Shown in pieces: positions 4,006-24,315 of a stretch of 32,000 nt of DNA. Positions within the stretch are counted from its first letter, which is position 1. The number at the start of each line of letters is the position of its first letter. The DNA lies in assembly GCF_000021865.1 (NCBI RefSeq), contig NC_014034.1, positions 2,400,001-2,432,000 on the forward strand, read 5' to 3'. The notes below the pieces were generated by a model. The model had not been told where the DNA came from and made no database searches. It was given only the letters and a program-made list of their open reading frames with translations. Source of the DNA: Rhodobacter capsulatus SB 1003 (lineage in GTDB: Bacteria; Pseudomonadota; Alphaproteobacteria; Rhodobacterales; Rhodobacteraceae). Both the position numbers and the translations under genes were made by a program.

Positions 4006-4222
4006 CCCATCCCCCCGAGACGCTGGCCCAGCATGTCGGCTGGCGCGCCGATGCCGCCACCGGCGGCGGCGCTGTTTTCGCGCTCCGAGCTGGGCACATC
4101 TCCCCCCGGATCATGAAACCGACGACGGATGTGCCGGAAAGGCGGGTCGCGGGCTTGAAAACTCAACGACATCCGGACCGATCCGGATCAGGCGCTGACG
4201 GCGCAGTAAGCCGCCGCACCGC

Positions 4223-4262
4223 AAAAACCCCCCTTCCGCGACCGGAAGGGGGGGGCATTTTT
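4223..4262. terminator. Bidirectional intrinsic terminator between convergent genes
   Basis: Perfect 11-bp stem CCCCCCTTCCG/CGGAAGGGGGG (4228-4238 / 4243-4253) with loop CGAC. It is flanked by AAAAA upstream and a T-rich tract (CATTTTT) downstream, so each strand sees a U-tract. Confidence 0.7.
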
Positions 4263-4294
4263 CGTCAAGCATTTGCGGGAGGTTGCCGCGGGGC

Positions 4295-6969: not shown

Positions 6970-6970
6970 C

Positions 6971-7843: not shown

Positions 7844-7868
7844 GGGGCTGTCCTTTCAGGGGCGGAAA

Positions 7869-7888
7869 GGGGGCGGCGCACCGCCCCC
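7869..7888 (-). other. Intercistronic GC-rich stem-loop between the radical-SAM-like gene and the NifH-like gene
   Basis: 8-bp stem GGGGGCGG/CCGCCCCC with loop TGCG on the minus strand, followed only by TTTCC. The U-tract is too short for a strong terminator. Confidence 0.4.
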
Positions 7889-7892
7889 GCAA

Positions 7893-9119: not shown

Positions 9120-9214
9120 CGGGTCATCCTTGGGAAAGCGTTGCAAAGGCTGCGCAGGGTCGGCCTGCGCGCGCTTCGGTCTGGGCTGTGCTGGGCGCCG
9201 ATAGACGGCAAATT

Positions 9215-9232
9215 CCATCGATATTTAGATGG
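9215..9232. promoter_or_regulatory. AT-rich palindrome upstream of the isrB-like gene (CCATC-GATATTTA-GATGG)
   Basis: Inverted repeat CCATC/GATGG with an 8-nt AT-rich spacer, about 100 nt upstream of the ATG at 9119. A GATAGAC half-motif lies next to it at 9200-9206. Confidence 0.3.
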
Positions 9233-9361
9233 CACGAACCCCAGTCCGGTTCCATTCCAAGTTGCCGGCCCCGCGGGGAAGGATCGCCCTGCGCGAAACC
9301 GGCCTTGAAGCAAGGATTTTCCGCGGCCCCCCCCGGGCCGCCCGCGACGGCGCAGGCCCGC

Positions 9362-11134
9362 TCAGCGCGGCTGCGGCCGCATGTCGGCCGGATCGATCCC
9401 CGCGACCACGACGGGTTTCGTCATCGCATCGCGGCGGAACGGCTCGCCCAGTTCCTGATTGATCAGCGCCTCGATCAGCGTGGTCTTGCCCGCCGCCTGA
9501 TCGGCCAGCGCCTTGCGCAGCGCCTCGGTCAGCTCCTCCATCGTGCGCGCGACGACGCCCTGCAAGCCGCAGGCCTGCGCGATCCCCGCGTAGCTGACCT
9601 GCAGATCCAGCTCTGTTCCGACGAAATTGTCGTCATACCAAAGGGTTGAGTTGCGCTTTTCGGCGCCCCACTGGTAGTTGCGAAAGACGACCATGGTGAT
9701 TGCGGGCCAGTCGGCACGGCCGATCGCGGTCAGTTCGGTGACCGAAATCCCGAAGGCGCCATCGCCCGCAAAGCCGACCACGGGGGTCTCGGGACAGGCG
9801 ATCTTCGCGCCGATGATCGCGGGCAGGCCGTAGCCGCAGGGGCCGAACAGCCCCGGCGCCAGATATTTCCGCCCCGCCGCGAAACTGGGATAGGCATTGC
9901 CGATGGCGCAGTTGTTGCCGATATCCGAGGAGAGGATCGCCTCGGGCGGCAGGGCGGCGGTGATCGCGCGCCAGGCCATGCGCGGGCTCATCCAACCGGG
10001 TTTCGCGGCGCGGGCGCGTTCGTTCCAGCTCGTGCCCGGATCGTCCTCCTCGTGATCCATCGAGGCGAGTTCCTGCGCCCAGCGGCTTTTCGTGGTGGCA
10101 ATCCGCGCCGCCCGCTCGGCCCGGTCTTGATCGCCGGCCTGCGCGCCCAGCCGCGCCAGGATCCCCCGCGCCACCGCCCCGGCATCGGCCGCAATCCCCA
10201 AAGTGACCGGCCGCGTCAGACCGATCCGGTCGGGGTTGATGTCCACCTGGATCACCGCCGCGGCTTTCGGCCAATAATCGATGCCATAGCCCGGCAGGGT
10301 CGAAAACGGATTGAGCCGCGTGCCCAGGCACAGCACCACATCGGCCTGTGACATCAACTGCATGGCGGCTTTCGAACCGTTGTAGCCCAAGGGCCCCGCG
10401 AAAAGCGGATGGCTGCCCGGAAAGGCGTCGTTGTGCTGATATCCGGTGCAGACCGGGGCCTCGAGCCGCTCGGCCAGCGCCACGGTGTCGGGGATCGCTT
10501 CGGCCAGCACCACCCCGGCGCCGTTCAGGATCACCGGAAACCGCGCGCTTGACAGCAGCGCCGCCGCCCGGTCCAGCGCCTGCGCATCGGGCGCGGGCCG
10601 GGGCAGATCGACGCCCTGCGGCAGCTCGATGTCGATGATCTTGGTGAACATGTCCCGCGGCAGGTTGATCTGCGCGGGCGCCGAGGCGCGGCGGGCCTTG
10701 CGGATCACCCGGTCCAGCACCTCGGCGATCCGGGCCGGGTCGCGCAGCTCTTCCTGCCAGCAGACCATGTCGCGAAACAGCGCCATCTGCTCGACTTCCT
10801 GAAAACCGCCCTGCCCGATCGTCCGGTTCGCCGCCTGCGGCGTCACCACCAGCATCGGCGTGTGATTCCAGTAGGCGGTCTTCACGGCGGTGACGAAATT
10901 CGTCACCCCGGGGCCGTTTTGCGCGATGATCATCGCCATCCGCCCCGAGGCGCGGGTGAAGCCGTCGGCCATCATCCCGCCCGAGCCCTCATGCGCGCAG
11001 TCGAAAAACCGGATGCCCGCACGCGGGAACAGATCCGAGATCGGCATGAAGGCCGAACCGATGATGCCAAAGGCGGTGTCGATCCCGTGGCGCTGCAATA
11101 CCTTGACGAAGGCTTCTTCCGTGGTCATCCGCAT
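9362..11134 (-). CDS. xsc: Sulfoacetaldehyde acetyltransferase (ThDP-dependent)
   Basis: The N-terminus MRMTTEEAFVKVLQRHGIDTAFGIIGSAFMPISDLF matches Xsc as recalled, and the protein has a ThDP-enzyme layout. AGGAGA Shine-Dalgarno 6 nt before the ATG at 11134. Context with tpa and tauR. Confidence 0.9.
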   Translation of the reverse strand: MRMTTEEAFVKVLQRHGIDTAFGIIGSAFMPISDLFPRAGIRFFDCAHEGSGGMMADGFTRASGRMAMIIAQNGPGVTNFVTAVKTAYWNHTPMLVVTPQAANRTIGQGGFQEVEQMALFRDMVCWQEELRDPARIAEVLDRVIRKARRASAPAQINLPRDMFTKIIDIELPQGVDLPRPAPDAQALDRAAALLSSARFPVILNGAGVVLAEAIPDTVALAERLEAPVCTGYQHNDAFPGSHPLFAGPLGYNGSKAAMQLMSQADVVLCLGTRLNPFSTLPGYGIDYWPKAAAVIQVDINPDRIGLTRPVTLGIAADAGAVARGILARLGAQAGDQDRAERAARIATTKSRWAQELASMDHEEDDPGTSWNERARAAKPGWMSPRMAWRAITAALPPEAILSSDIGNNCAIGNAYPSFAAGRKYLAPGLFGPCGYGLPAIIGAKIACPETPVVGFAGDGAFGISVTELTAIGRADWPAITMVVFRNYQWGAEKRNSTLWYDDNFVGTELDLQVSYAGIAQACGLQGVVARTMEELTEALRKALADQAAGKTTLIEALINQELGEPFRRDAMTKPVVVAGIDPADMRPQPR

Positions 11135-11184
11135 CGGTCTCTCCTGAGATTTTCGGCCAATCAACCCCGGAGCGGCGCGAAATC

Positions 11185-11217
11185 TTAGGTCCAGAGCACG
11201 AAATCGGATGGGGCCAG
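11185..11217 (-). promoter_or_regulatory. Candidate TauR operator upstream of xsc (TTAGGTCCAG-N13-ATGGGGCCAG on the plus strand)
   Basis: The decamer at 11185-11194 is identical to the one at 14162-14171. A degenerate second repeat sits at the same 23-nt register. The proximal repeat lies 51 nt from the xsc ATG, compared with 58 nt at tpa. Confidence 0.5.
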
Positions 11218-11218
11218 A

Positions 11219-12673
11219 TCAACGCAGGGCGCGGGCGATGCGGGCGATGCCCTCGGGGATCGCGGCGGGGCCGATCGAGGAATAGGCGAGGCGATAGAAA
11301 TTGCGCCGCTCGCGCGCCGGATCAAAGAACACCCGGCCGGGTTCGATCAGCACCCCCTCGGCGCGCAGGCGCAGCGCCAGGTCTTCGGTATCGACCGCCC
11401 CGGGCGCCTGCATCCAGAACGACGAGCCCCCGAAACCGCCCTGCCCCGCGATCTGCAACCCGTTGTCTTCGATGGCTTTTGTCATCACCTCGCGGCGCAG
11501 GCGATAGGCCGCCTTCATCCGCGCCACCAGCGCATCGTAATGGCCAAGCGACAGGAACAGCGCCAGCGTGCGTTGCAGCTGCCCCGGCGGATGGCGCAGC
11601 ACGGTGGCCCGCAGCGCCCGCACCGCCGCAACGAAAGGCGCGGGGGCGACGAGATAGCCCAGCCGCAGCCCCGGAAACAGCGATTTCGAGAACGAGCCCA
11701 CATGCACGACGCGCCCGCCCGCATCGAGCGATTTCAGCGAGGGCGCGGCCGATTGCAGGAAGGACATTTCGAATTCGTAATCATCCTCGAGGATCAGGAA
11801 ATCCCCGGCTTCCGCCGCCGCCAGAAGTGCCAGCCGACGCTCCACCGGCAGGGTGGCATTCGTCGGGCAATGATGGCTGGCGGTGGTGACCACCAGCTTG
11901 AGCCGCGCGGGCAGCTGCGCGGGCACCAGCCCCCGGTCATCGACATCGACCGAAAGCACCTCGGCGCCGGTCGTGCCCAGAACCGCGCGCGTGCCCGGAT
12001 AGCCCGGATTTTCCATCGCCGCCCGTTCCCCCGGACCCAGCAGAACCTGCGCCGCCAGCCAGAGCCCGTTCTGCGCCCCCATGGTGATCAGCACCTCGGA
12101 GGGCACGGCCGCAATGCCGCGACGGGGCAGGATGTGGCGCAGGATATATTCGACGAGCAGCGGATCGTCTTCGTCGTAGCAATCCGCCGAAAGCCTGTGA
12201 AACTCGCGCCGGCCAAGGGCTTGCAGCGCACAGGCCCGCCAGTTCTGATGGTCGAAAAGTTCGGGATCGGCCTGCCCGTAGATGAAGGGATAGCGATAGA
12301 GCGACCAGTCGCGCGGCCGGTCGGGGCGCGGCAGGCCCTGCGCGCGGGGGTGCAAAAGCCGGGCCCAGTCCGTCCGGGCACCGTCCCGGGGCAAGGGCCG
12401 GGCCTTGCGCGCATCGGGGGCGGCGGCGGAAACGAACGTGCCCGACCGCCCGCGCGCCAGCAGGTAATCCGAGGCCACCAGATCGGCATAGGCGAGCGTC
12501 ACGGTGATGCGGGCGACGCCCAGATGCGCCGCCAGCGCCCGGGTCGAGGGCATCCGGTCGCCCGGGCGAAACCGGCCCGAAAGGATCCCCTCGGTCACCA
12601 TCTGGCGCAGGCGGTGCTGCAGCGATCCCTGCCCGCCGGGCGCCAGAAAGAAGCTTTCGACCGGAATGGCCAT
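11219..12673 (-). CDS. tauR: MocR-subfamily GntR regulator (wHTH plus class-I aminotransferase-like domain), taurine regulator
   Basis: N-terminal GntR wHTH (RMPSTRALAAHLGVARITVTLAYADL) fused to a roughly 350-aa PLP-fold domain. Located between tpa and xsc. Confidence 0.9.
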   Translation of the reverse strand: MAIPVESFFLAPGGQGSLQHRLRQMVTEGILSGRFRPGDRMPSTRALAAHLGVARITVTLAYADLVASDYLLARGRSGTFVSAAAPDARKARPLPRDGARTDWARLLHPRAQGLPRPDRPRDWSLYRYPFIYGQADPELFDHQNWRACALQALGRREFHRLSADCYDEDDPLLVEYILRHILPRRGIAAVPSEVLITMGAQNGLWLAAQVLLGPGERAAMENPGYPGTRAVLGTTGAEVLSVDVDDRGLVPAQLPARLKLVVTTASHHCPTNATLPVERRLALLAAAEAGDFLILEDDYEFEMSFLQSAAPSLKSLDAGGRVVHVGSFSKSLFPGLRLGYLVAPAPFVAAVRALRATVLRHPPGQLQRTLALFLSLGHYDALVARMKAAYRLRREVMTKAIEDNGLQIAGQGGFGGSSFWMQAPGAVDTEDLALRLRAEGVLIEPGRVFFDPARERRNFYRLAYSSIGPAAIPEGIARIARALR

Positions 12674-12690
12674 CTTGACCTCGCAGCTTC

Positions 12691-12717
12691 GCTGGACCCA
12701 TGAAGGATAGGTCCAGC
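12691..12717. promoter_or_regulatory. Inverted GGTCCAG repeat between tpa and tauR (GCTGGACC-N11-GGTCCAGC)
   Basis: Perfect 8-bp arms. Each arm carries the same GGTCCAG core as the tpa and xsc repeats. It lies 18-44 nt upstream of the tauR ATG and could alternatively act as an RNA hairpin. Confidence 0.45.
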
Positions 12718-12724
12718 GCGGCTG

Positions 12725-14104
12725 TCAAGCGGCCAGGCGGCGCAGGGCGGCGTCGATCGTCTCGGTGATGCGGTCGATCTCGGCTTCCGAGGCGATCAGC
12801 GCCGGGGCAAGGCAGAGCGTGGTATTGAGCCCGGGGATCGAGCGGTTGGTGGCGCCGATCAGCACGCCCTGCGCGGCGCAATCGGCCACGACCGCCTGCA
12901 CCTTCGCCTCGGCCAGCGGCTCTTTCGTGCGCCGGTCGGCCACCAGTTCCGCGCCGCAAAACAGGCCCTTGCCGCGCACGTCGCCAATCACCGCATGCCG
13001 TTCGGCCAGATCCCGAAGGTTCGCCAGCAGCCGTTCCCCCATCTGCGCGGTGTTCTGCAAAAGCCCCTCCTCCTCGATGATCCGCAGGGTTTCGAGCGCC
13101 GCCGCAGGCCCCGCCGTGCAGCCGCCAAAGGTGGAGATGTCGCGGAAATGGCACAGCGGATCGCTGGGCGCATCCTTGAACAGCTCAAAGACCGCCTCGG
13201 TCGTCACGGTGCAGGAAATCGCCGCATAGCCCGCGGCCACGCCCTTCGCCATGGTGACGAAATCGGGCTGAATGCCATAGTGCTGATAGCCGAACCAGGC
13301 GCCGGTGCGGCCGAGCCCGCAGACGACCTCGTCCAGATGCAGCAAGATGTTGTATTTGCGGCAGATGTGGCTCACCTTTTCCCAATAGCCCGCGGGCGGC
13401 ACGATCACGCCCCCGCCCGCGGTGATCGGTTCCAGCACGAGGCAGCCGATGCTGTCGGGCCCCTCGCGCAGGATCACCTCTTCGATCGCATCGGCGGCGC
13501 GCTCGCCGTAATTGGCGCAGTCCCATTGCGCCCGGTATTCGAGGCAATGCGGCACGCTCACGAAGCCGTCGGGGAAAGGCCCGTAGTGCTCGGCCCGCTG
13601 CGCCTGCCCCGAGGTGGCCAGCGCGGCAATGGTGGTGCCGTGGTAATCCCTTTCCCGGAAAAGGATTTTCCCCTTGCGGCCACCGTGATGGCGGTGCGAG
13701 ATCTGCCGCACCATCTTGTAGACCTTCTCGTTCGCCTCGGAGCCCGAGTTGGAATAATAGACCCGCGACAGCCCCGGCATCTTCGCGATCAGCGCCTCGG
13801 CATAGCGCGCCCCGGGCACGGTGCCCGCCGCGCCCGCATAATAGGGCAGCGCCAGAAGCTGCGCCGCGACGGCCTCGACAACATCCTTGCGGCCATAGCC
13901 GAGGTTCACCGTCCAGACCCCGCCCGAGGTCGCATCCAGAAATTCGCGCCCGGTCGCATCCCAAAGCCGCATCCCCCGGCCCTCGACGAAGACCCGCGGA
14001 TCGCTGGTTTCATAGGGCTTGTGCTGGCTCAGGTGGTGCCAGACATGGGCGCGGTCAGCGGCGATGATCGGGGCGGCATCTTGCGGAATCGGGGCGGCGT
14101 GCAT
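12725..14104 (-). CDS. tpa: Taurine-pyruvate aminotransferase (class-III aminotransferase)
   Basis: Class-III PLP enzyme blocks (YSNSGSEANE, LDEVVCGLGRTGAWFG, TMAKG Lys). Context with tauR, xsc and tauABC. The ATG at 14104 is preferred over 14140, which lies only about 20 nt from the operator repeats. Confidence 0.88.
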   Translation of the reverse strand: MHAAPIPQDAAPIIAADRAHVWHHLSQHKPYETSDPRVFVEGRGMRLWDATGREFLDATSGGVWTVNLGYGRKDVVEAVAAQLLALPYYAGAAGTVPGARYAEALIAKMPGLSRVYYSNSGSEANEKVYKMVRQISHRHHGGRKGKILFRERDYHGTTIAALATSGQAQRAEHYGPFPDGFVSVPHCLEYRAQWDCANYGERAADAIEEVILREGPDSIGCLVLEPITAGGGVIVPPAGYWEKVSHICRKYNILLHLDEVVCGLGRTGAWFGYQHYGIQPDFVTMAKGVAAGYAAISCTVTTEAVFELFKDAPSDPLCHFRDISTFGGCTAGPAAALETLRIIEEEGLLQNTAQMGERLLANLRDLAERHAVIGDVRGKGLFCGAELVADRRTKEPLAEAKVQAVVADCAAQGVLIGATNRSIPGLNTTLCLAPALIASEAEIDRITETIDAALRRLAA

Positions 14105-14161
14105 GGGGGCCTCTGGTTGAGCGTGGGATGGCGCGACCATGACAGCGGCCCCCCGCTTCGA

Positions 14162-14194
14162 TTAGGTCCAGTTTCCCCGAAGCCTTAAGTCCAG
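14162..14194 (-). promoter_or_regulatory. TauR operator: direct repeats TTAGGTCCAG-N13-TTAAGTCCAG (CTGGACYTAA on the tpa strand)
   Basis: Two 10-nt direct repeats (9 of 10 identical) with starts 23 nt apart, in the tpa/tauA divergent region. Consistent with my recollection of the direct-repeat TauR site reported at the R. capsulatus tpa promoter. Confidence 0.7.
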
Positions 14195-14244
14195 AGCGCC
14201 GTTTTTTCCACCCTGACGGGATTTTTCTTCCCCCGCCGGACCGG

Positions 14245-14270
14245 CAAGGCGCGCTGCCGCGCCTTGTTTT
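14245..14270 (+). terminator. Terminator-like hairpin inside the tauA upstream region
   Basis: Perfect 9-bp stem CAAGGCGCG/CGCGCCTTG with loop CTGC, followed by TTTTG on the plus strand only. It lies 160 nt upstream of the tauA ATG. Confidence 0.45.
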
Positions 14271-14429
14271 GCGGGCCCGAAGAAGAATTCCCCTTCGCCC
14301 CCGCCCCGCGAGAGATTTTTCCTGCCGTTCGGCCCGCGCCTTTGGAATGGCATCCGGGCCGCGGATCGGCTCATTTCACAAATGACGATGGATTTAATGA
14401 ACATTCCGCCACCTCTGAAAGGACCGACC

Positions 14430-15425
14430 ATGACCAAAGCCCTGAAACGTGCCGCGCTTTCGGCGCTTGCGCTGCTGGCCGCAAGCAGCGCCGCCACCGC
14501 GGCCCCCGACGAGATCACCGTGGCCTGGTTCCTTGAATGGCCGCTGCCGTTCGAGCAGGCCAAGGTCGATGGCACCTTCGAGAAGGAACTGGGCGTCAAG
14601 GTGAACTGGCGCGCGTTCGACACCGGCGTGGCGATGTCGGCCGCCGCCGCCGCGGGCGATGTGCAATTCCTGATTTCGCAAGGGGTGCCGCCCTTCGTCA
14701 CCGCGACCTCGGCCGGGCAGGATCTGAAGGCCATCGCCATCGCGGTGAGCTACTCGGAAAACGACAATTGCGTCGTGCGCAAAGACCTTGAAATCACGAA
14801 GGAAAATGCGAAAGATCTGATCGGCAGGAAGGTCGGCGTACCGCTGGGCACCGCGGCGCATTACGGCTTTCTCAAGCAGCTCGAACATTTCGGGCTGGAG
14901 GCGAGCCAGCTGCAGGTGGTCGATCTGACGCCCCCCGATGCGGCGGCGGCGATTGCGCAGGGCAATATCGACGTCTTCTGCGGCTGGGGTGGCGCGCTGG
15001 CCCGTGCCAAGGATTACGGCAACGTGCTGCTGACCGGCGCCGAAAAGGAAGAGGCGGGCATTCGCGTCTTTGACGTGATCTCGACGCCCGGCGCCTTTGC
15101 GGCGGAAAACCCCGATCTGGTGACGCGGTTCCTCAAGGTGGTGAACGACGAAAACGCCGCCTATCTGGCCGATCCCGACAGGTTCATCCCGGTGCTGGCG
15201 AAGGACTCGGGTCTGGACGAGGCGGGCACCAGGGCGCAGCTGGCGGGCTTTGCCCTGCCCACGATCGAAGAAAAGCTCTCGGACAAATGGCTGGGCGGCG
15301 GGTTGCAGGCCTATCTGAAATCGGTCGCCGATTTCTTCGTCACGACGCAGAACATCCCCGCGGCGCTGGAAAGCTATGAGGGCGCGGTGGACGCAAGCTA
15401 TCTCGAGGCCGCCTCGAAACTCTGA
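14430..15425 (+). CDS. tauA: Taurine ABC transporter periplasmic binding protein
   Basis: Signal peptide MTKALKRAALSALALLAASSAATA. TauA/SsuA-type blocks (WRAFDTG..AAAAGDVQF). AAGGA Shine-Dalgarno 8 nt before the ATG at 14430. Confidence 0.85.
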   Translation: MTKALKRAALSALALLAASSAATAAPDEITVAWFLEWPLPFEQAKVDGTFEKELGVKVNWRAFDTGVAMSAAAAAGDVQFLISQGVPPFVTATSAGQDLKAIAIAVSYSENDNCVVRKDLEITKENAKDLIGRKVGVPLGTAAHYGFLKQLEHFGLEASQLQVVDLTPPDAAAAIAQGNIDVFCGWGGALARAKDYGNVLLTGAEKEEAGIRVFDVISTPGAFAAENPDLVTRFLKVVNDENAAYLADPDRFIPVLAKDSGLDEAGTRAQLAGFALPTIEEKLSDKWLGGGLQAYLKSVADFFVTTQNIPAALESYEGAVDASYLEAASKL

Positions 15426-15510
15426 CGCTTCCGTCCCGGACCTTCGGCGGCGCGGGGCCCTCCCCGCGCCTTTCCCCGTTCCGCCCCCCGTTCAGACACC
15501 CGGTGTTCCC

Positions 15511-16326
15511 ATGTCCGACCTTTTCATCGACCGCCTGTCGATGCGGTTTGCGCAAGCCGCAAGCCCCCCCACCGAAGCCCTGCGCGATGTCTCGCTGACG
15601 ATCCGCAAGGGCGAACTTGTCTCGATCCTCGGCCCCTCGGGCTGCGGCAAGACCACGCTTTTGAACATCCTTGCCGGATTTCTGGCGCCCACCGGCGGCA
15701 CGGTCCGGCTGGGCGACGCGCCGATCACCGGCCCCGGCCCCGAACGCGGCATGGTGTTTCAGCAGGGCGCGCTGTTCGAATGGATGAGCGTGCGGCACAA
15801 CATCGATTTCGGACCGCGGATGCGCGGCGTGGCGCGGGCCGAGCGCGCCCGCCTGACCGATCATCTGCTTGAAAGCGTGGGGCTGCAGGGCTTTGGCGAC
15901 AAGCCGGTCTATGCGCTCTCGGGGGGCATGCAGCAGCGGGTGGCGCTGGCGCGCTGCCTGGCCAATGACCCGGAGCTGATCCTGATGGACGAGCCCTTGG
16001 GCGCGCTGGATGCGCTGACGCGCGAAAAGATGCAGGGCCTGATCCTGAAGCTGTGGCGGGACACCGACAAGACGGTGATCCTGATCACCCATTCGGTCGA
16101 GGAGGCGCTGCTTCTGGGGCAGCGGCTGATCGTGATGGCGCCGCGCCCGGGGCGGATCCTGCGCGACTATGCGCTGCCCTTTGCCGGGGCCGCCGTCGGC
16201 GCCGATCTGCGCGAGATCCGCCGCCGCCCGGATTTCATTCAGACCCGCGACGAGATCCTGTCGCTGATCTGGGGGATGGAGGACGAAATCATGGGCCGCT
16301 TCGAACTGGCGGAGGCGGCGCAATGA
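15511..16326 (+). CDS. tauB: Taurine ABC transporter ATP-binding protein
   Basis: Walker A GPSGCGKTT, ABC signature LSGGMQQR and Walker B LILMDEP. Confidence 0.9.
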   Translation: MSDLFIDRLSMRFAQAASPPTEALRDVSLTIRKGELVSILGPSGCGKTTLLNILAGFLAPTGGTVRLGDAPITGPGPERGMVFQQGALFEWMSVRHNIDFGPRMRGVARAERARLTDHLLESVGLQGFGDKPVYALSGGMQQRVALARCLANDPELILMDEPLGALDALTREKMQGLILKLWRDTDKTVILITHSVEEALLLGQRLIVMAPRPGRILRDYALPFAGAAVGADLREIRRRPDFIQTRDEILSLIWGMEDEIMGRFELAEAAQ

Positions 16327-17576
16327 TCCTGGCCCTTGCCTATCTGGCGATTTTCCTGGGCGCGGGGCTGAGCCTGCGCCTGATCCGCCGCGGCCGCATC
16401 GACACCGCGCGCCGCACCGTCTCCTTTGGCGACGCAAGCGCGGTGCGGCCCGACCGCGTCGCCTCGGTGCTCTCGGTGGCGACGATCTTTCTGATCTGGG
16501 GGGCCTTCACCGGCTCGAAACTGGTGCCGGTGCATGTGCCGGGCCCCTTCACCGGCGAGACGGCGTTTTCCTACACCGTCACCGCGCCCGATGGCGCCAG
16601 CGATACCGCGACGGTGCGGGTGACGGTGCTGGCCCCCGCCGACACCACCCCGCAAAAGCCGCCCTTGCCCGCCCCCCGCACCGGCCTTGCGCAAGATGAC
16701 GCCGCCTCGGTCGCGGCCTGGCGCTATGCGCTGGTGCGTCCGACCGCGAATGACGCGCCGGGGGTGAGCCTGACCGCGATCGACGGGCAGCCGGTGACAG
16801 TGGGCCAGCCGCTGCGCGTCGCGCATGGGCAGGTGACGCTGACGCCGAAAGGCTCGCTCTCGTTTGCGCCCGACAAGGGCTGGCAGATGGAGCCGATCTG
16901 GCTGCCCGCGCCCGAAAGCGTCGCCGCCCGGTTCTGGCAAATCGCGCGGGAGGGCTATCAGAACAAGCCGCTGTGGGAACACCTGGGCTTTTCGCTTTTT
17001 CGGGTGCTGGCCGGGTTCTTTTTCGGCGCGCTGATCGGGATTCCGCTTGGCTATGCGATGGGGCTTTCGGGTTGGGTGCGCGGCTGGTTCGACCCGATCG
17101 TCGAATTCATGCGCCCGGTGCCGCCGCTTGCGCTCATTCCGCTGATCATCATCTGGTGGGGGATCTGGGAAACCGGCAAGATCGTTTTGCTGTTTCTGGC
17201 CGCGCTTTGGATCATGGTGATCGCGGCGCGCTCGGGGGTGGCGGGGGTGCGGCTTTCCAAAGTCCATGCCGCCTACAGCCTTGGCGCTTCGAAATGGCAG
17301 GTGCTGACCCATGTGATCATCCCGAATTCGCTGCCCGATCTCTTCATCGGCGCGCGGGTGGCGATGGGGGTGTGCTGGGGCACCGTCGTCGCGGCGGAAC
17401 TGGTCGCGGCGGAAAAGGGCGCAGGCATGATGATCCTTGTCGCCTCGAAATTCCAGCTGACCGACATCGTGGTGATGGGGATCCTGCTGATCGGCCTGAT
17501 CGGTTACGGCATCGATGTCGCCCTGCGCGCGGCCGAGCGCCATTTCGTGCCCTGGCGCGGCAGGACCGGCGGCTGA
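16323..17576 (+). CDS. tauC: Taurine ABC transporter permease carrying a roughly 130-aa periplasmic insertion
   Basis: ATGA coupling to tauB. The C-terminal 220 aa is a standard BPD-type permease core. Residues about 65-193 are an extra domain with cadherin/Big-like sequence patterns. Confidence 0.85.
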   Translation: MILALAYLAIFLGAGLSLRLIRRGRIDTARRTVSFGDASAVRPDRVASVLSVATIFLIWGAFTGSKLVPVHVPGPFTGETAFSYTVTAPDGASDTATVRVTVLAPADTTPQKPPLPAPRTGLAQDDAASVAAWRYALVRPTANDAPGVSLTAIDGQPVTVGQPLRVAHGQVTLTPKGSLSFAPDKGWQMEPIWLPAPESVAARFWQIAREGYQNKPLWEHLGFSLFRVLAGFFFGALIGIPLGYAMGLSGWVRGWFDPIVEFMRPVPPLALIPLIIIWWGIWETGKIVLLFLAALWIMVIAARSGVAGVRLSKVHAAYSLGASKWQVLTHVIIPNSLPDLFIGARVAMGVCWGTVVAAELVAAEKGAGMMILVASKFQLTDIVVMGILLIGLIGYGIDVALRAAERHFVPWRGRTGG

Positions 17577-17590
17577 TCGCGCGGCACAGG

Positions 17591-17625
17591 AAAAGGCCCC
17601 GGATCGCTCCGGGGCCTTTGGTTTT
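17591..17625. terminator. Bidirectional intrinsic terminator between tauC and the cysteine desulfurase gene
   Basis: 8-bp stem GGCCCCGG/CCGGGGCC with loop ATCGCT, flanked by AAAA upstream and TTTGGTTTT downstream. Confidence 0.7.
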
Positions 17626-17634
17626 GGGGCTTTC

Positions 17635-19413
17635 TCAGCGCCGGCGACTGGCCAGCCGTGCCACCGCCGCGACGAACAGATCGACCTCGTCCCTTGTGTT
17701 GTAAAAGGCAAGCGAAGGCCGCACCGTCGCCTCCAGCCCGAAGCGGCGCAGGATCGGCTGCGCGCAGTGATGCCCCGCCCGCACCGCGATCCCCTCGCGG
17801 TCCAGCGCCCGGCCGACCTCGAGCGGCTCGAACCCCTCCAGCACGAAGGAGAGGACCGAGGCCTTGTGCGCCGCCGTGCCGATCAGCCGCACGCCGCGCA
17901 CCTGCGCCAGTTGCGCGGTCGCATAGTCCAGAAGCGCGTGTTCATAGGCGCCGATCGCGTCAAGCCCGATCCGTTGCACATAGGCCAGCGCCGCCGCCAG
18001 CCCGGCGGCATCGGCGATATTGCCGGTGCCCGCCTCGAACCGCGCGGGCGGCGGCTGGTAGAGCGTGCGCTCGAAACTGACATCGGCGATCATGTTGCCC
18101 CCGCCCTGCCAGGGCGGCAGCGTCTCGGCCAGGGCGCGGCGGATGTAGACCGCGCCGATGCCGGTGGGCCCAAACACCTTGTGGCCGGAAAAGACAAAGA
18201 AATCGGCGCCGATCTCCTGCACGTTCACCGGCATGTGGCTGACCGATTGCGCGCCATCGACAAGCGCCACCGCGCCGACCCCATGCGCCGCCGCCACGAT
18301 CTCGCGCACCGGAACCACCGTGCCCAAAGCGTTCGAGACCTGCGTCACCGCCACGATCTTCGTGCGCGGGCAAAGCAGCTTGAGATAGTCCTCCAGCCGC
18401 ACCTGCCCGGTGTCATCGACCGGAATGACCCGGATCCGCGCCCCCTTTTCCGCCGCAAGCTGTTGCCAGGGCACGATATTGGCATGGTGTTCCAGATGCG
18501 AGACGATGATCTCGTCGCCCGCGCGGATGTTCGCCACGCCCCAGGTGCGGGCGACAAGGTTGATCCCCTCGGTCGCGCCGCGCACGAAGGTGATTTCCTC
18601 CGACGCGGCCGCACCGAGAAAATCCCGCACCGCATCGCGGGCGTGCTCATAGGCATCCGTCGCCCGCGCCGCCAAAGTATGCGCGGCGCGGTGGATGTTC
18701 GAATTCTCGTGGCGATAGAACTCGGACAGCCGGTCGATGACGCAGGCGGGTTTCTGCGTCGTCGCGGCATTGTCGAACCAGACCAGCTGCCGCCCGTTCA
18801 CCCGCTCGGACAGGATCGGGAAATCGCGGCGCACGGCCTGGACGTCAAAGGCAGGCGCCGCGGCAGGCGTCGCCGGAGGGGGCTCTGCCGCCTCGGGCAG
18901 GAAGTAGAACCGCCCGGGCGGGGCCGCTTGCGGCGTGGCGAAGGGCGGCGCCCCGATCCGCGGCGACGCCGGGGCGGGCGCCAGTCGGGCATGGGCCGGG
19001 GGCGTCTGCAAGGCCGCGGGCGCGGTGTCCTGCGGCGCCAGCCTCGGCGCCCCGGAGCGATCCGGCGCCTGGGCCGCGGATTTGCCGGTCAGCAGGCCAA
19101 AGGCCTGCCGCGCCAGGCTGTCGAGACTGTCGGCATGACCGGCGCCAAGCGGCGCCGTGCCCAGCGCGCCGGGCGCAAGCCCCGCCCCGGGCGCCAGATC
19201 GGCGGCAGGGCCGCTGGCGCCGGGATGGCCCCCCGTCGCGCGCCGCGCAAGCGCGCCCGCCGTCCCCGCATCCGGCTCGGCCAGATAAGAGGGGCTTTCG
19301 CCCCCCTCTCCCGGCAATGCGGTGAAGAAATCCCGCGCCAGCGCCGTCAGTTGCGCGATGTCGGGCAGGCCCGCGGGGGCCGCGCTCTCAGCGGTAAGTG
19401 TCGGGGTAGTCAT
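17635..19413 (-). CDS. Class-V (SufS/CsdA-like) cysteine desulfurase with a long disordered N-terminal extension; predicted encapsulin cargo
   Basis: The catalytic domain runs from about FDVQAVRRDFPIL and includes the SGHK PLP lysine and the C-terminal RAGHHCAQP active-site Cys. It is preceded by about 190 aa rich in Pro, Ala and Gly. The ATG at 19413 has a GAGGTGG Shine-Dalgarno and overlaps the encapsulin 3' end by 26 nt. Confidence 0.9.
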   Translation of the reverse strand: MTTPTLTAESAAPAGLPDIAQLTALARDFFTALPGEGGESPSYLAEPDAGTAGALARRATGGHPGASGPAADLAPGAGLAPGALGTAPLGAGHADSLDSLARQAFGLLTGKSAAQAPDRSGAPRLAPQDTAPAALQTPPAHARLAPAPASPRIGAPPFATPQAAPPGRFYFLPEAAEPPPATPAAAPAFDVQAVRRDFPILSERVNGRQLVWFDNAATTQKPACVIDRLSEFYRHENSNIHRAAHTLAARATDAYEHARDAVRDFLGAAASEEITFVRGATEGINLVARTWGVANIRAGDEIIVSHLEHHANIVPWQQLAAEKGARIRVIPVDDTGQVRLEDYLKLLCPRTKIVAVTQVSNALGTVVPVREIVAAAHGVGAVALVDGAQSVSHMPVNVQEIGADFFVFSGHKVFGPTGIGAVYIRRALAETLPPWQGGGNMIADVSFERTLYQPPPARFEAGTGNIADAAGLAAALAYVQRIGLDAIGAYEHALLDYATAQLAQVRGVRLIGTAAHKASVLSFVLEGFEPLEVGRALDREGIAVRAGHHCAQPILRRFGLEATVRPSLAFYNTRDEVDLFVAAVARLASRRR

Positions 19414-20318
19414 GGTATTTTCCCACCTCCACATCGGTCAGCACGGCCAGCGCATCGGGCGATTGCACGACGAGCGAGCAGTAAAGCGAGATCAGATAGG
19501 ACGCGATCGCATTGCGGTCGATCCCCATGAACCGCACCGAGAGGCCCGGGCTCTGCTCGCCCTCCAGCCCCGGTTGAAAGAGGCCCACGACGCCCTGCCG
19601 CTTCTCGCCCACCCGCAGAAGCAGGATCGAGGTCTTGCCGCCGGTGACGGGGATCTTGTCGGACGGAATGATCGGCAGGCCGCGCCAGGTGAGGAACTGC
19701 GCCCCGAACAGGCTGACCGTCGCGGGCGGGACCCCGCGGCGCGTGCATTCGCGGCCAAAGGCGGCGATGGCGCGCGGATGGGCCAGGAAGAAGGCGGGTT
19801 CCTTCCAGACCTTGGTGATCAGCTCGTCCAGATCGTCGGGCGTCGGCGCCCCGGTCAGCGTCGGGATGATCTGGCTCTCGGCGGCATTGGCCAGAAGCCC
19901 GTAATCGGGGTTGTTGATCAGCTCGCTTTCCTGCCGCTCCTTCACCGTCTCGACGGTCAGGCGCAGCTGTTCCTTGACCTGATCGAAGGGCGAGGAATAT
20001 AGGTCGGACACCCGCGTATGGACATCGAGCACGGTCCAGACGGCATTGAGGAAATATTCCCGCGGCCGGTCGTCGTAATCGACGAAGGTCGCGGGCAGCA
20101 CGGCCTCGTCGCGCTGGGTGCAGGCGACGCGCACGGCATCGGCGTTCTTCACCGTGTTGAGCCGGTAGATCCCCGCCTCGACCGGAAGCCATTGCAGGAA
20201 ATGCACCAGCCAGCGCGGCAGTGATCGTGGGCCAGGATACGGCGCCCGTCTTCGTGGCATTGGCAAAGCTGGCGGGCGGCACTGTCGCCCAGCGCCAGTT
20301 TGACACCGGTTCGGTCAT
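19388..20318 (-). CDS. Family 2A (SrpI-like) encapsulin shell protein, interrupted by an apparent 1-nt frameshift near 20219-20222 (possible pseudogene, sequencing error or recoding)
   Basis: The ATG at 20318 has a strong AAGGAG Shine-Dalgarno and reads 33 codons (MTEPVSNWRWATVPPASFANATKTGAVSWPTIT). The remaining 276 codons (PRWLVHFLQWLPVEAGIYRLN ... to the stop at 19388) lie in the +1 frame. About 309 aa once joined, with no cNMP-binding insertion. Operon context of cysteine desulfurase, CysE and rhodanese. Confidence 0.8.
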
Positions 20319-20340
20319 TCACGTTCTCCTTCTTGGGGTG

Positions 20341-20372
20341 CAGAAAACCATCCCGCGGACGCGCCGCGGGAT
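20341..20372 (-). terminator. Terminator/attenuator-like hairpin between cysE and the encapsulin gene
   Basis: On the minus strand: 9-bp stem ATCCCGCGG/CCGCGGGAT with loop CGCGT, followed by GGTTTTCTG. It ends 22 nt upstream of the encapsulin ATG, abutting its Shine-Dalgarno region. Confidence 0.45.
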
Positions 20373-20397
20373 TGGCAGGTTGAAAATGTGTTCTGTG

Positions 20398-21357
20398 TCA
20401 GTCTGTTCCGGGGCCCGGCCGGGGGCCCCGGGTCAGCCCGGCCTGGGTCACATGCGCCCCCGGCGGCACGCTTTCGGTCAGCCAGACATTGCCGCCGATG
20501 ACGGCGCCCTTGCCCAGCGTGACCCGGCCCAGCACGGTGGCGCCGGCATAGATCACCACGTCATCCTCGACGATCGGATGGCGCGGATGGCCCTTGAGCG
20601 CACGGCCCAGCGCATCGGTGGGAAAGCTTTTCGCCCCCAGCGTGACCGCCTGAAACAGCCGCACGCCATCGCCGATCACCGTGGTTTCGCCGATCACCAC
20701 GCCGGTGCCGTGATCGATGAAGAACCCCGCGCCGATCGTCGCGCCGGGGTGGATGTCGATCCCCGTCGCGCGATGCGCCGCCTCCGAGATCATCCGCGCG
20801 ATCAGCGGTGCGCCAAGACGGTAAAGCCGGTGGGCGATGCGATGGTGGATCATCGCGGCCAGACCCGGGTAGCACAGCAGCACCTCGTCGACGCTGCGCG
20901 CCGCCGGATCGGCGCCATGGGCCGCCAGGACATCCTGGTCAAGCTGGGTGCGGATCGTCGGCAGATATTGCGCGAAGTCGCGCACAAGCGCATGCGCCCG
21001 CCCCCGGATTTCCGCCCGCTGCGCCGGATCGGCGTCGTTCGGACGGCCGCCCAGTTCCAGAACCACCTGTTCCACCAGATCGCGCAGCACGACATCGAGC
21101 GTGTGGCCGACATAAAGCTGTTCGCTTTCCTGCCGCAGGTCCGAAGGCCCGAGCCGCATCGGAAACAGCGCCCCGCGCAGCCCGGCGACGATCCGTTCCA
21201 CCGTCTCGGGCGCGGGCAATTCGCGCCCGCCCGGCGTGGTGGCGCGATGATGCGCCGCCCGCCAGTCGGCGCGCGCCCGGGTCAGCGCCGCCAGCACCGG
21301 AACCAGGGAAAACCCGTTGTCCGCGTCGTGATCCGTCCGTTGCGTGTCAAGCGTCAT
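20398..21357 (-). CDS. cysE: Serine O-acetyltransferase (long form, 319 aa)
   Basis: Hexapeptide-repeat core GIDIHPGATIGAGFFIDHGTGVVIGETTVIGDGV typical of CysE. AAGGAGG Shine-Dalgarno 5 nt before the ATG at 21357. Confidence 0.9.
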   Translation of the reverse strand: MTLDTQRTDHDADNGFSLVPVLAALTRARADWRAAHHRATTPGGRELPAPETVERIVAGLRGALFPMRLGPSDLRQESEQLYVGHTLDVVLRDLVEQVVLELGGRPNDADPAQRAEIRGRAHALVRDFAQYLPTIRTQLDQDVLAAHGADPAARSVDEVLLCYPGLAAMIHHRIAHRLYRLGAPLIARMISEAAHRATGIDIHPGATIGAGFFIDHGTGVVIGETTVIGDGVRLFQAVTLGAKSFPTDALGRALKGHPRHPIVEDDVVIYAGATVLGRVTLGKGAVIGGNVWLTESVPPGAHVTQAGLTRGPRPGPGTD

Positions 21358-21389
21358 GCTGCCTCCTTGGCTGAAATTCCTGCCTTCAA

Positions 21390-21437
21390 TCCGTCGCCCC
21401 GGTGCCGCGGCCCCAGTCCGTCGTCCCCGGTGCCGCG
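21390..21437. repeat. Tandem 20/21-nt direct repeat in the rhodanese-cysE spacer
   Basis: TCCGTCGCCCCGGTGCCGCG (21390-21409) and TCCGTCGTCCCCGGTGCCGCG (21417-21437). They are identical apart from one extra T, and their starts are 27 nt apart. Confidence 0.5.
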
Positions 21438-21438
21438 C

Positions 21439-21906
21439 TCAGTCCTGCCGCCAGGGCAGATCGCGCCAGCGCCAGCCCGACACCCGGCCGCGGTGGCCCG
21501 CCGCGTCCAGATCGCCCTCGAACCCCTCAAGCACGTTGAACACCTGGGTGAAGCCCGCCGCCGTCGCCGCCTGCGCCGCCTGAACCGAGCGCTGCCCGGA
21601 CCGGCACAAGAGCAAGATCACCGCCTCGCGCGGGGCGACCGTTTCCAGCCCGCGCAGAAACCGCGGGTTGCGCGTCAGCTCGAGCCCGCTGGCCCAGGGC
21701 AGGTGCAGCGCCCCCGGCACATGGCCGACGAAGCGGATCTCCTCGGGCGAGCGGATGTCGATCAGCAGCCCCTGCCCCGCCTCGGCCAGCGCCTGCGCCA
21801 GATCGGGCGGCACATCGCCCGCATAGCTCAGACCGGCCGCGCGCGCCGTGGCGCGGATCTGGGCCAGCGCATCGGCCGGGGCAAGCGGGGCGGAAACGGC
21901 GGTCAT
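21439..21906 (-). CDS. Single-domain rhodanese (sulfurtransferase), 155 aa
   Basis: Active-site loop CRSGQRS in a rhodanese-fold context. The ATG at 21906 has an AGGGAG Shine-Dalgarno 7 nt upstream. The longer ORF-track extension to 22290 is Arg/Pro-rich with no ribosome-binding site. Confidence 0.85.
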   Translation of the reverse strand: MTAVSAPLAPADALAQIRATARAAGLSYAGDVPPDLAQALAEAGQGLLIDIRSPEEIRFVGHVPGALHLPWASGLELTRNPRFLRGLETVAPREAVILLLCRSGQRSVQAAQAATAAGFTQVFNVLEGFEGDLDAAGHRGRVSGWRWRDLPWRQD

Positions 21907-22003
21907 GGCAACTCCCTGTGGCAAGCGGACATCGCGGGGCGGGACGGCGCGGCGGGGATGCCCCGCCCGCCTCTTCCGGCTGGGAGAACCGGAACACGAG
22001 AAT

Positions 22004-22030
22004 TCACGATTGAGAAGATAGATATTAATC
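22004..22030 (+). promoter_or_regulatory. Operator/promoter-like motif, copy B: TCACGA-N7-GATAGA-T-ATTAATC
   Basis: 21 of 27 positions match 981-1007. It sits in the only AT-rich patch of the 307-bp region upstream of the rhodanese-cysE-encapsulin operon, 98 nt from the rhodanese ATG. Confidence 0.4.
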
Positions 22031-22213
22031 GTCTTCTGTTTCGGCGCCGTTTTTGGAGGAAATCCGCAGCGGGGCGGCTTTCGGACAGAAGGTTTCTTCT
22101 GCGCCCCGGCAGCCCCTGCGCGGCCCGGGCGACTCAGCCGCGCCGGATTGCCCTGCGGCGCGGCCCGCGCCCGCCCGAAACCGGGCGGACGAAGACAGCT
22201 GGACGGGGGCGGC

Positions 22214-23248
22214 TCAGCCCTTTTGCGCGGCAAAGGGGGCGCGGTATTGCGCCTGACGTTCCAGCATCCAGCCCGGATATTCCGGGGCAAGCTTTGTCAC
22301 CGCATCAAGCGCCGCCAGATCCCCGGGCGACAGGCTGACCCCGGTCGCGCCGATGTTGTCGGCCAGCTGATCGACCCGTTTCGCCCCCACGATCACCGAG
22401 GTCACCACCGGCTGATGCAAAAGCCAGGCCAGCGCCACCTGTGCGACAGAGCACCCCCTCTCCGTGGCGATCTCGCGCAGCACCGCCACCGCGGCATCGC
22501 CCCGCGCCAGATCGACGGGCGGGAAGTTGAAGCTGGCCCGCCGCCCCCCGGCTGCCGTGCCGCCGCTGTATTTGCCCGACAGGAACCCGCCCGCCAGCGG
22601 GCTCCAGACCAGCAGTCCGATCCCCTCGCTTTGCAGCATCGGCACGATGTCGCGTTCCAGATCGCGACCGACCAGCGTGTAATAGGCCTGCAGCGACAGG
22701 ATCGGCGCCAGCTTGCGGGCCTCGGCGATACCCACCGCCTTGACGATCTGCCAGGCCGCCCAGTTCGACAGGCCGATGTAGCGCACATGCCCCTGCCGCA
22801 CGAGCGTATCCAGCGCCTCGAGCGTCTCCGTGATCGGCGTCACCGGGTCGAAGCCATGGATCTGGTACAGGTCGATGTGATCCATCTGCAGCCGCGTCAG
22901 GCTGGCCTTGGCCTGTGCCAGCACATGCGCGCGCGACGCGCCAGCGGCATTCGGCCCCGCGCCCATCGGCCCCAGAACCTTGGTCGCGATCACCACATCG
23001 TCGCGGGCAAGGCCAAGATTGCGGATCGACTGACCCAGAATCCGCTCGCTCTCGCCGCCCGCATAGACATTGGCGGTGTCGATGAAGTTGATCCCGGCCT
23101 CGATCGCGGTCTGCACCAGCGCATCGGCCTCTTCCTGACGCAACTGGCCGATCTGGCCCCAGATCCCCTCCGAGCCGCCAAAGGTCATCGTGCCGAGGCA
23201 GAGTTCGGAAACCAGAAGGCCGCTTGGGCCAAGCGTGCGATAGCGCAT
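22214..23248 (-). CDS. Aldo/keto reductase (Kv-beta/YajO-like)
   Basis: MRYRTLGPSGLLVSELCLGTMTFGG N-terminus and AKR blocks throughout. AAGGA Shine-Dalgarno 7 nt before the ATG at 23248. Confidence 0.85.
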   Translation of the reverse strand: MRYRTLGPSGLLVSELCLGTMTFGGSEGIWGQIGQLRQEEADALVQTAIEAGINFIDTANVYAGGESERILGQSIRNLGLARDDVVIATKVLGPMGAGPNAAGASRAHVLAQAKASLTRLQMDHIDLYQIHGFDPVTPITETLEALDTLVRQGHVRYIGLSNWAAWQIVKAVGIAEARKLAPILSLQAYYTLVGRDLERDIVPMLQSEGIGLLVWSPLAGGFLSGKYSGGTAAGGRRASFNFPPVDLARGDAAVAVLREIATERGCSVAQVALAWLLHQPVVTSVIVGAKRVDQLADNIGATGVSLSPGDLAALDAVTKLAPEYPGWMLERQAQYRAPFAAQKG

Positions 23249-23418: not shown

Positions 23419-24315
23419 ATGGACAATGACCCCCTTGCCCCCCTGAGAGACGCGATCACCCGCCTGTGGCAGGCGCATGGCCGCGAAACGCCCCTTCACG
23501 GGCTGTATCTGACCTCGGTTTCGGCCCCGGCCGGGCCGATCCATGCGGTTTACCGCCCCTCGCTCTGCGTCGTGGTGCAGGGCGCCAAGATCTCCATGCT
23601 GGGCGACCGGGCCTATCGCTATGACGCGGGAAAATGCCTGATCGCCGCGCTGGAGGTGCCGATCCGCGCCGAGATCACCGATGCCACGCCGGACCGGCCC
23701 TATCTTGCCTTCAGCCTGGCGCTGGATCCGGCGACGATTGCCGATCTGCTGCTCGACCCGGCCGAGGCCGTCGCCATCCCGCCCGGCCCGGCGCTGGCGG
23801 TGCACAGCCTGAGCGCGGAGCTGCTCGATCCGCTGCACCGGCTGCTGCGCCTGTGCGAGCGGCCGCGCGACCTTGCGATCCTGGCGCCGCTGGTCCGGCG
23901 CGAGATCACCTGGCTGTTGCTGAACGGTCCGATGGGGCCCGCGCTGCGCCAGATCGGGCTGGCGGGCAGTCCCGCGGCGCGGATCGGGCGGGCCATCGCG
24001 CAGATCCGCGACAGCTTCGCCGAGCAGCTGAACATCGCGCGGCTGGCCGAGGTCGCGGCCATGAGCCCCGCCACCTTTCATCGCCATTTCAAGGCGGTGA
24101 CGGCGATGACGCCGGTGCAGTATCAAAAGCAGCTGCGCCTGCAGGAGGCGCGGCGGCTGCTGTTGTCCGACGCGGCCGATGTCGCCCGGGTCGGCTATGC
24201 GATCGGCTACGAAAGCCCCTCGCAGTTCAGCCGCGAATATCGCCGCATGTTCGGCGCCCCCCCCGGCCGGGATGGCGTCGCGATCCGCAAGGTCCTGGCC
24301 CCGCCGACGGCCTGA
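23419..24315 (+). CDS. AraC-family transcriptional regulator (AraC_N-type sensor domain plus C-terminal HTH)
   Basis: C-terminal dual HTH (MSPATFHRHFKAVTAMTPVQYQKQLRL...GYESPSQFSREYRRMFG). Divergent from the aldo-keto reductase gene. Confidence 0.85.
   Translation: MDNDPLAPLRDAITRLWQAHGRETPLHGLYLTSVSAPAGPIHAVYRPSLCVVVQGAKISMLGDRAYRYDAGKCLIAALEVPIRAEITDATPDRPYLAFSLALDPATIADLLLDPAEAVAIPPGPALAVHSLSAELLDPLHRLLRLCERPRDLAILAPLVRREITWLLLNGPMGPALRQIGLAGSPAARIGRAIAQIRDSFAEQLNIARLAEVAAMSPATFHRHFKAVTAMTPVQYQKQLRLQEARRLLLSDAADVARVGYAIGYESPSQFSREYRRMFGAPPGRDGVAIRKVLAPPTA

Follow-up and report, generated by a model that had tools for sequence, protein, structure and literature searches.

A predicted Family 2A desulfurase encapsulin operon in Rhodobacter capsulatus SB 1003 with a shell gene that is probably mis-sequenced in the reference genome

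We analysed a stretch of 32,000 nucleotides (nt) of the Rhodobacter capsulatus SB 1003 chromosome (NC_014034.1, positions 2,400,001 to 2,432,000; hereafter the window). Judged by its sequence, region 17635–21906 of the window is the operon rcc02247–rcc02244, which is of the Family 2A desulfurase encapsulin type and contains genes for a rhodanese, a serine O-acetyltransferase, the shell protein of an encapsulin and a cysteine desulfurase cargo. In the deposited sequence the shell gene appears broken at its 5′ end, and we are very confident that this is a sequencing error of the reference and that the real gene is intact. Overall, an encapsulin sulfur-compartment operon in which the broken shell gene is a reference artefact is the best explanation of the locus, and one that we hold with confidence. 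A sequence-only reading of the window had proposed four co-directional genes of the SrpI-type encapsulin set in this region, with which the gene coordinates, profile hidden Markov models and gene order in relatives agree. All four genes lie on the minus strand and point in one direction, 17635 being the desulfurase stop and 21906 the rhodanese start. The features concerned are the following (window coordinates; aa, amino acids).

21439–21906, minus strand: rhodanese, rcc02247; 155 aa, single domain (PF00581, E 1.8e-14).
20398–21357, minus strand: serine O-acetyltransferase of the EpsC type, rcc02246; 319 aa (NF041874, Pfam hexapeptide repeat).
19388–20318, minus strand: Family 2A encapsulin shell, rcc02245; 931 nt as written, split over three frames.
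17635–19413, minus strand: cysteine desulfurase cargo, rcc02244 ('sufS2'); 592 aa (NF041166, TIGR01979).
18844–19413, minus strand: residues 1–190 of the desulfurase; N-terminal domain predicted from composition and loading motifs to be disordered and to serve in cargo loading.
20350–20372, minus strand: GC-rich 9-bp stem-loop followed by GGTTTTCTG, from a terminator-like scan.
17584–17633, both strands: hairpin resembling a bidirectional intrinsic terminator, read from the sequence.
21907–22213, minus strand: the 307 nt upstream of the rhodanese gene, where the promoter and regulatory sites of the operon presumably lie.
19730–20408, no strand: stretch with 15 differences private to the window, from alignments with loci L081, L082, L083 and L084.

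The genes are closely packed, with 81 nt between the rhodanese and acetyltransferase genes, 79 nt between the acetyltransferase and shell genes and an overlap of 26 nt between the shell and cargo genes, and a Pfam scan of the four products returned SrpI-like, Aminotran_5, Hexapep and Rhodanese domains. The arrangement is conserved: of 80 related loci taken from GTDB representative genomes, 57 share the order rhodanese-acetyltransferase-shell-desulfurase and 68 have a rhodanese homologue upstream of the shell gene. A plasmid origin of the locus was ruled out, as it lies on the 3.74-Mb SB 1003 chromosome and plasmid matches were only distant (71–79% identity).

The assignment of the shell is carried by profile and structural matches. 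The protein passed the NF041162 equivalog model for Family 2A encapsulins (encap_f2a; 494.5 bits against a cut-off of 380) and matched the SrpI-like Pfam family PF19307 with an E value of 9.4e-105, whereas it stayed below the cut-off of the Family 2B model NF041163 (encap_f2b; 388.7 bits against 400), of which it covered only profile positions 210–449 of 450. The intact 307-aa form of the protein, which we refer to as P0001, aligned end to end with two shells solved by cryo-electron microscopy (cryo-EM), 8T6R from Acinetobacter baumannii (E 2.7e-166, ~80% identity) and the SrpI shell 6X8M (E 2.8e-147), and also matched the mycobacterial major membrane protein I (MMP-I) shells 9KSL, 8WOL and 8WON (E 1e-130 to 1e-137). 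Its match to the Family 2B shells 9BJE, 9BHU and 9BIX involved the core, that is the C-terminal ~240 residues (E 1e-85 to 1e-94). Since P0001 is ~80% identical over nearly its full length to a 1.78-Å cryo-EM structure, we regard the HK97 fold of the shell as settled. Pfam found no cyclic nucleotide monophosphate (cNMP)-binding domain in the shell, the full length of which is only 307 aa. The protein is thus predicted to be a Family 2A (SrpI-like) encapsulin shell without the cNMP insertion, as the sequence-only reading had supposed, and the encapsulin profile search which that reading had suggested gave a match well above the cut-off rather than none.

In the window as written, the beginning of the shell gene is spread over all three reading frames. 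MTEP and the block ANATKT..PTIT (ANATKTGAVSWPTIT) share a frame with the ATG at 20318, KLALGDSAARQL falls into a second one, and PRWLVHFLQWLPVEAGIYR / PRWLVHFLQW and all downstream shell sequence into a third; the longest in-frame shell open reading frame (ORF) has 292 aa and begins with a TTG at 20266. The in-frame part is 100% identical to ADE85975.1 / WP_013067954.1. Other R. capsulatus assemblies encode the intact 307-aa P0001, which starts MTEPRQLALGDSAARQLANATKTAPILPTITPRWLVHFLQW and has TEPRQLALGDSAAR as its N-terminal peptide. [quoted passage not shown] Removal of these bases (at 20220, 20233, 20239, 20247, 20267, 20301 and 20307) gives a gene of 924 nt that encodes 307 aa. The shell of about 309 aa given by the sequence-only reading therefore has no counterpart among the ORFs of the window (longest 292 aa, against 272 aa in GenBank and 307 aa in the intact form); the sequence blocks that it quoted are all present, although not in one frame, ANATKT and PRWL having been joined across different frames without comment.

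We compared the window by alignment with four P0001-encoding loci (L081–L084), two on the complete chromosomes CP198954.1 and CP198942.1 and two in the Logan assemblies DRR065959 and SRR12463556. Over 12.9 kb the window and CP198954.1 (L081) differ at 16 positions, of which 15 lie inside 19730–20408, and the two Logan contigs L083 (10.7 kb) and L084 (7.3 kb) show the same 15 differences and none elsewhere. Eight of the differences consist of a single extra base in the window (20220, 20233, 20239, 20247, 20267, 20301, 20307 and 20338), seven of them inside the shell coding sequence, in its first 99 nt. The other seven are substitutions (19730, 19733, 20000, 20037, 20092, 20305 and 20408), the pair at 19730 and 19733 amounting to a GC/CG swap. 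In the shell, the change S92W puts a tryptophan in place of a serine that is conserved across all homologues inspected, and the substitution at nt 20408 causes the change A317G near the C-terminus of the acetyltransferase, which is likewise private to the window. The spacing of the differences narrows steadily toward 20338, and every indel is an insertion in the window. From this rise in density in one direction, the presence of insertions only and the otherwise identical flanks we infer a single low-quality read tail in the reference; the SB 1003 genome is a Sanger-sequenced one. In a collection of 15 billion proteins, the frameshifted shell product occurs on a single contig and the intact form on 76. 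Programmed frameshifting of the shell gene was considered and ruled out, as there are seven separate one-base insertions and none is found in the other assemblies. A literature search for reports of sequencing errors in SB 1003 returned nothing relevant. Exact matches to the acetyltransferase and TauA of the window, by which further assemblies derived from SB 1003 might have been recognised, were not found.

The explanation that competes best with a reference error is that the frameshifts are real in SB 1003, in which case the shell gene would be a pseudogene, or a shell without the N-arm would be made from the TTG at 20266 or the annotated GTG, and the compartment would be defective or altered. 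This would agree with the window being the deposited sequence and with the 272-aa product annotated in GenBank; the lack of a growth phenotype on isethionate in rcc02245 and rcc02244 knockouts would fit a non-functional system, and the two Logan assemblies, which match the window everywhere else, come from strains of unconfirmed identity. However, seven insertions within 99 nt, followed by 830 nt that have no indel or stop and are 97–100% identical to other strains, do not resemble a decaying gene; insertions alone, with substitutions that become denser in one direction and a GC/CG swap, fit base-calling errors; the flanking 7–13 kb are identical or carry one difference; and the frameshifted protein stands alone against the 76 contigs with the intact form. 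We therefore consider real frameshifts unlikely, and hold that the 5′ end of rcc02245 is mis-sequenced in the reference.

The desulfurase has the properties expected of the cargo of such a shell. It passed the dedicated Family 2A cargo model NF041166 (f2_encap_cargo1; 843 bits against a cut-off of 800) and scored 544 bits against TIGR01979 (sufS). A SufS-type catalytic domain occupies residues ~176–589, which match PDB entry 8KG1 (E 3e-186), and contains both the pyridoxal phosphate-binding lysine in SGHK (residues 409–412) and the catalytic cysteine Cys550 in GHHC. Residues 1–175 have no match among solved structures. Proline, alanine and glycine make up 54% of the N-terminal 190 residues, within which two candidate loading motifs were found, LPDIAQLTALARDFFTALPGE (nt 19306–19368) and GRFYFLPE (FYFL at nt 18898–18909); both are present in 59 of 67 homologous cargo proteins extracted from the related loci, and they are the counterparts of the motifs 'LARLANEFFS' and 'AASPYYFLDG' of SrpI-associated desulfurases (Nichols et al. 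2021, PMC8049743). In Synechococcus elongatus, the equivalent N-terminal domain is required for loading and also suffices for it (PMC8049743). The desulfurase protein is the same in L081 as in the window, with no residue changed. A SufS-like enzyme with a long disordered N-terminal domain had been read from the sequence, and the two models, the composition and the loading motifs bear this out.

It could be argued that the desulfurase is instead a second housekeeping SufS that works unencapsulated, with the rhodanese as acceptor, in iron-sulfur or thio-cofactor synthesis under sulfur limitation. The catalytic domain is indeed a canonical SufS domain (TIGR01979), and rhodaneses can serve as desulfurase acceptors (PMC10836720). 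Against a free enzyme stand the score above the cut-off of the Family 2A cargo model, the disordered domain of 190 residues and its two loading motifs, the role of the equivalent domain in S. elongatus, the 26-nt overlap of the cargo gene with the shell gene and the lack of adjacent sufE/sufU or sufBCD genes. We consider a free SufS very unlikely and an encapsulated desulfurase the better account of rcc02244.

The two upstream genes complete the set. The rhodanese has a single cysteine, Cys101, which lies in the active-site loop CRSGQRS and is presumed to act as persulfide acceptor or sulfur remobiliser; the protein has no residue changed between the window and L081. The PF00581 match and the intact Cys101 loop bear out the rhodanese that the sequence-only reading had named. 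The acetyltransferase scored 163 bits with the EpsC model NF041874, which is above the cut-off of 150, and failed the cysE equivalog TIGR01172 (167 bits against 210.65), which makes it a member of the serine O-acetyltransferase family and not a canonical CysE. The name CysE that it had been given is thus right as to the family and slightly too specific. The catalytic motif DHGTGVVIGET is intact, and the protein has an N-terminal extension of ~135 residues. In Rhodovulum strictum, the closest relative outside R. capsulatus, a gene for a CysK-like cysteine synthase (positions 3896–4870 of locus L001) lies between the rhodanese and acetyltransferase genes, and the operon is a five-gene variant in which both steps of cysteine synthesis are encoded.

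The system is already known and annotated and is a close relative of one that has been characterised structurally and biochemically. The family was established with SrpI by Nichols et al. 2021 (PMC8049743), and Benisch et al. 2024 (PMC10836720) described 1462 desulfurase encapsulin operons from 11 phyla, divided into four operon types. The four-gene type is that of A. baumannii, where the T=1 shell was solved at 1.78 Å, the disordered loading domain binds discontiguously, crystalline elemental sulfur is stored in the shell, sulfur limitation induces the operon ~10-fold and the rhodanese is proposed to remobilise stored sulfur (PMC10836720). The A. baumannii 118362 operon J517_0525–0528 (8T6R; PMC10836720) matches that of R. 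capsulatus in its four genes and in their order, has a shell that is ~80% identical over the full length and a cargo with a long disordered Pro/Gly-rich N-terminal loading domain and short conserved motifs, and responds to sulfur limitation. Unlike in A. baumannii, the host is here an alphaproteobacterial phototroph, the operon stands at the end of a 26-kb isethionate/taurine island and induction on isethionate is ~1000-fold, and the R. capsulatus system is known from genes and transcripts, not from biochemistry or structure. The SrpI/CyD system of S. elongatus PCC 7942 (6X8M; PMC8049743) likewise has a Family 2A shell with an N-arm, both cargo motifs and a sulfur-starvation response, but is plasmid-borne, whereas the R. 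capsulatus operon is chromosomal and has four genes; characterisation in S. elongatus was confined to the shell and the desulfurase next to it, and PMC8049743 nowhere uses the word rhodanese. The mycobacterial MMP-I Family 2A shells are homologous, come from actinobacterial hosts and have lower identity, and Family 2B encapsulins have the HK97 core in common with the R. capsulatus shell but are ~470 aa long with a cNMP insertion that is absent here.

MMP-I is also the source of the legacy product name of rcc02245, 'major membrane protein I', under which GenBank lists ADE85975.1 (272 aa) and which wrongly implies a membrane protein. That rcc02245 encodes a membrane protein or antigen, for which this GenBank name is the sole argument, can be dismissed as extremely improbable, as the closest solved homologues (8T6R, 9KSL and 8WOL) were themselves deposited as 'major membrane protein I', the next closest, SrpI 6X8M, is an HK97-fold T=1 shell by cryo-EM, and RefSeq has renamed the protein (WP_013067954.1) family 2A encapsulin nanocompartment shell protein.

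In SB 1003 the operon responds to the sulfur source. Published RNA sequencing data gave isethionate/sulfate ratios of 1005 for rcc02247, 1215 for rcc02246, 1293 for rcc02245 and 1422 for rcc02244 (mSphere 2024, PMC11423573); the comparison is one of isethionate with sulfate and not strict sulfur starvation. These 1005- to 1422-fold inductions support the link to sulfur limitation that the sequence-only reading had drawn from the neighbouring genes. The four induced genes are part of a 26-kb sulfonate-assimilation island (isrBHDK, ssuABC, xsc/tpa/tauABC), in the description of which they appear as 'sufS2', 'major membrane protein I', 'serine O-acetyltransferase-2' and 'rhodanese', and the word 'encapsulin' is absent (PMC11423573). 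R. capsulatus had no match in the encapsulin-catalogue supplements of PMC8346489. The novelty that the sequence-only reading had implied is not supported: the RefSeq name exists, the operon type is characterised in A. baumannii, three of the R. capsulatus genes have been knocked out, and among purple non-sulfur bacteria the same shell family is found in Rhodovulum strictum, Fuscovulum blasticum, Cereibacter ovatus and Rhodobacter viridis.

By analogy with these systems, 60 copies of the 307-aa HK97-fold shell protein would assemble into a T=1 particle of ~24 nm, and the desulfurase, as up to ~12 dimers, would be held on the inner shell surface by the short motifs of its disordered N-terminal domain. 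The encapsulated enzyme would convert cysteine to alanine and deposit the sulfur in a protected store of elemental or polysulfide form, the acetyltransferase would feed cysteine synthesis, and the rhodanese would probably accept or remobilise the stored sulfur. Several points weigh against this account of the locus. Each mechanistic step is transferred to R. capsulatus from homologues in A. baumannii and S. elongatus, encapsulation of the desulfurase with sulfur deposition inside the shell being established for A. baumannii alone (PMC10836720); R. capsulatus strains in which rcc02244, rcc02245 or rcc02247 is knocked out show normal growth on isethionate (PMC11423573), and no phenotype so far ties the operon to sulfur supply; the acetyltransferase falls short of the cysE equivalog; and the case for a reference error rests on the pattern of differences and not on SB 1003 reads, the strains behind the Logan runs being unestablished.

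Three elements may bear on the expression of the operon. The stem-loop at 20350–20372, which has a short T-run, sits in the 79-nt acetyltransferase-shell spacer and also folds in L081, and a different strong GC hairpin occupies the equivalent spacer of Rhodovulum strictum (L001, 5839–5919); the stem-loop may be a partial terminator, an mRNA-stability element or a setter of the ratio of upstream to downstream products. The hairpin at 17584–17633 (GGCCCCGGA-TCGC-TCCGGGGCC) has T-runs on both strands, separates the convergent desulfurase and tauC genes, which are 58 nt apart, and, from its sequence and position, is predicted to mark the 3′ end of the operon. No Rfam family was found across the operon and its upstream region, the sole match being one below threshold to the sRNA family BjrC68 (19.8 bits against 39) that probably reflects no more than the terminator hairpin. 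Upstream of the rhodanese gene there is an AT-rich island, GATTAATATCTATCTTCTCAATCGTGAATT (~21990–22035), and a scan of the operon and upstream region for the sigma-70 consensus gave no match. The 9-mer TTGGAATGG occurs just upstream of isrB (9252–9260, minus strand) and tauA (14342–14350, plus strand), two matches against 0.24 expected (3 of 100 shuffles reach 2), and is perhaps a promoter or regulator element common to the sulfur-regulated island. The region upstream of the encapsulin operon lacks it, and it was ruled out as an explanation of co-regulation.

The surroundings of the operon are largely concerned with sulfonates. Nitrogenase-like genes on the minus strand (NifH-like, 6971–7843; NifD/E-like, 5614–7008; a further ORF, 4295–5614) adjoin a gene for a radical SAM (S-adenosylmethionine) protein (7893–9218, minus strand), and the genes at 4295–9218 are the isethionate-assimilation genes isrBHDK, which are 1100–4800-fold up on isethionate (PMC11423573). 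A taurine/sulfoacetaldehyde module at 9362–17576 contains xsc (9362–11164) and genes for a MocR-type TauR (11219–12673) and the Tpa aminotransferase (12725–14140) on the minus strand, and tauABC (14382–17576) on the plus strand. GGTCCAG/CTGGACC boxes, which we take to resemble published TauR sites, repeat in the xsc-tauR, tauR-tpa and tpa-tauA spacers. The TauC permease (16323–17576, plus strand) has 417 aa against a TauC profile of 275 positions, and its extra N-terminal ~185 residues, which have a faint match to the Pfam family Big_9 (bacterial Ig-like) in the homologous locus L081, are unusual for an ATP-binding cassette permease. Conserved linkage of the operon to taurine genes was ruled out, as tauA/tauC-like genes lie within 6 kb in only 3–4 of the 80 related loci; the operon is conserved and its placement within a sulfonate island is lineage-specific. 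On the other side, an aldo-keto reductase gene (22214–23248, minus strand) lies upstream of the operon in the same direction, across a 307-nt gap, and is divergent from a gene for an AraC-family regulator (23419–24315, plus strand). Both are probably outside the operon, because they are absent from the list of genes induced >100-fold on isethionate (PMC11423573).

The present analysis says nothing new on encapsulin biology. What it adds is, first, that the 5′ end of rcc02245 is almost certainly mis-sequenced in the widely used SB 1003 reference. The errors shorten the annotated product to 272 aa, and cloning, proteomics searches and read counting for this gene would be led astray by them. It adds, second, that the genes published in the isethionate island as 'sufS2 / major membrane protein I / SAT-2 / rhodanese' form an encapsulin operon, which links the induction and knockouts reported there (PMC11423573) to a well-understood machine. 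A tentative and rather doubtful extension is that the encapsulin is a storage or buffer module of the anaerobic sulfonate island, in which sulfite from isethionate or taurine would be reduced, would pass into cysteine with the aid of the dedicated acetyltransferase and from there into shell-protected elemental sulfur to be released by the rhodanese; if true, sulfonate scavenging would be coupled to a protein-bounded sulfur store, a coupling undescribed in other hosts. For R. capsulatus, the encapsulin operon points to phenotypes beyond growth on isethionate, namely the storage of sulfur, the recovery of sulfur-starved cells and redox stress.

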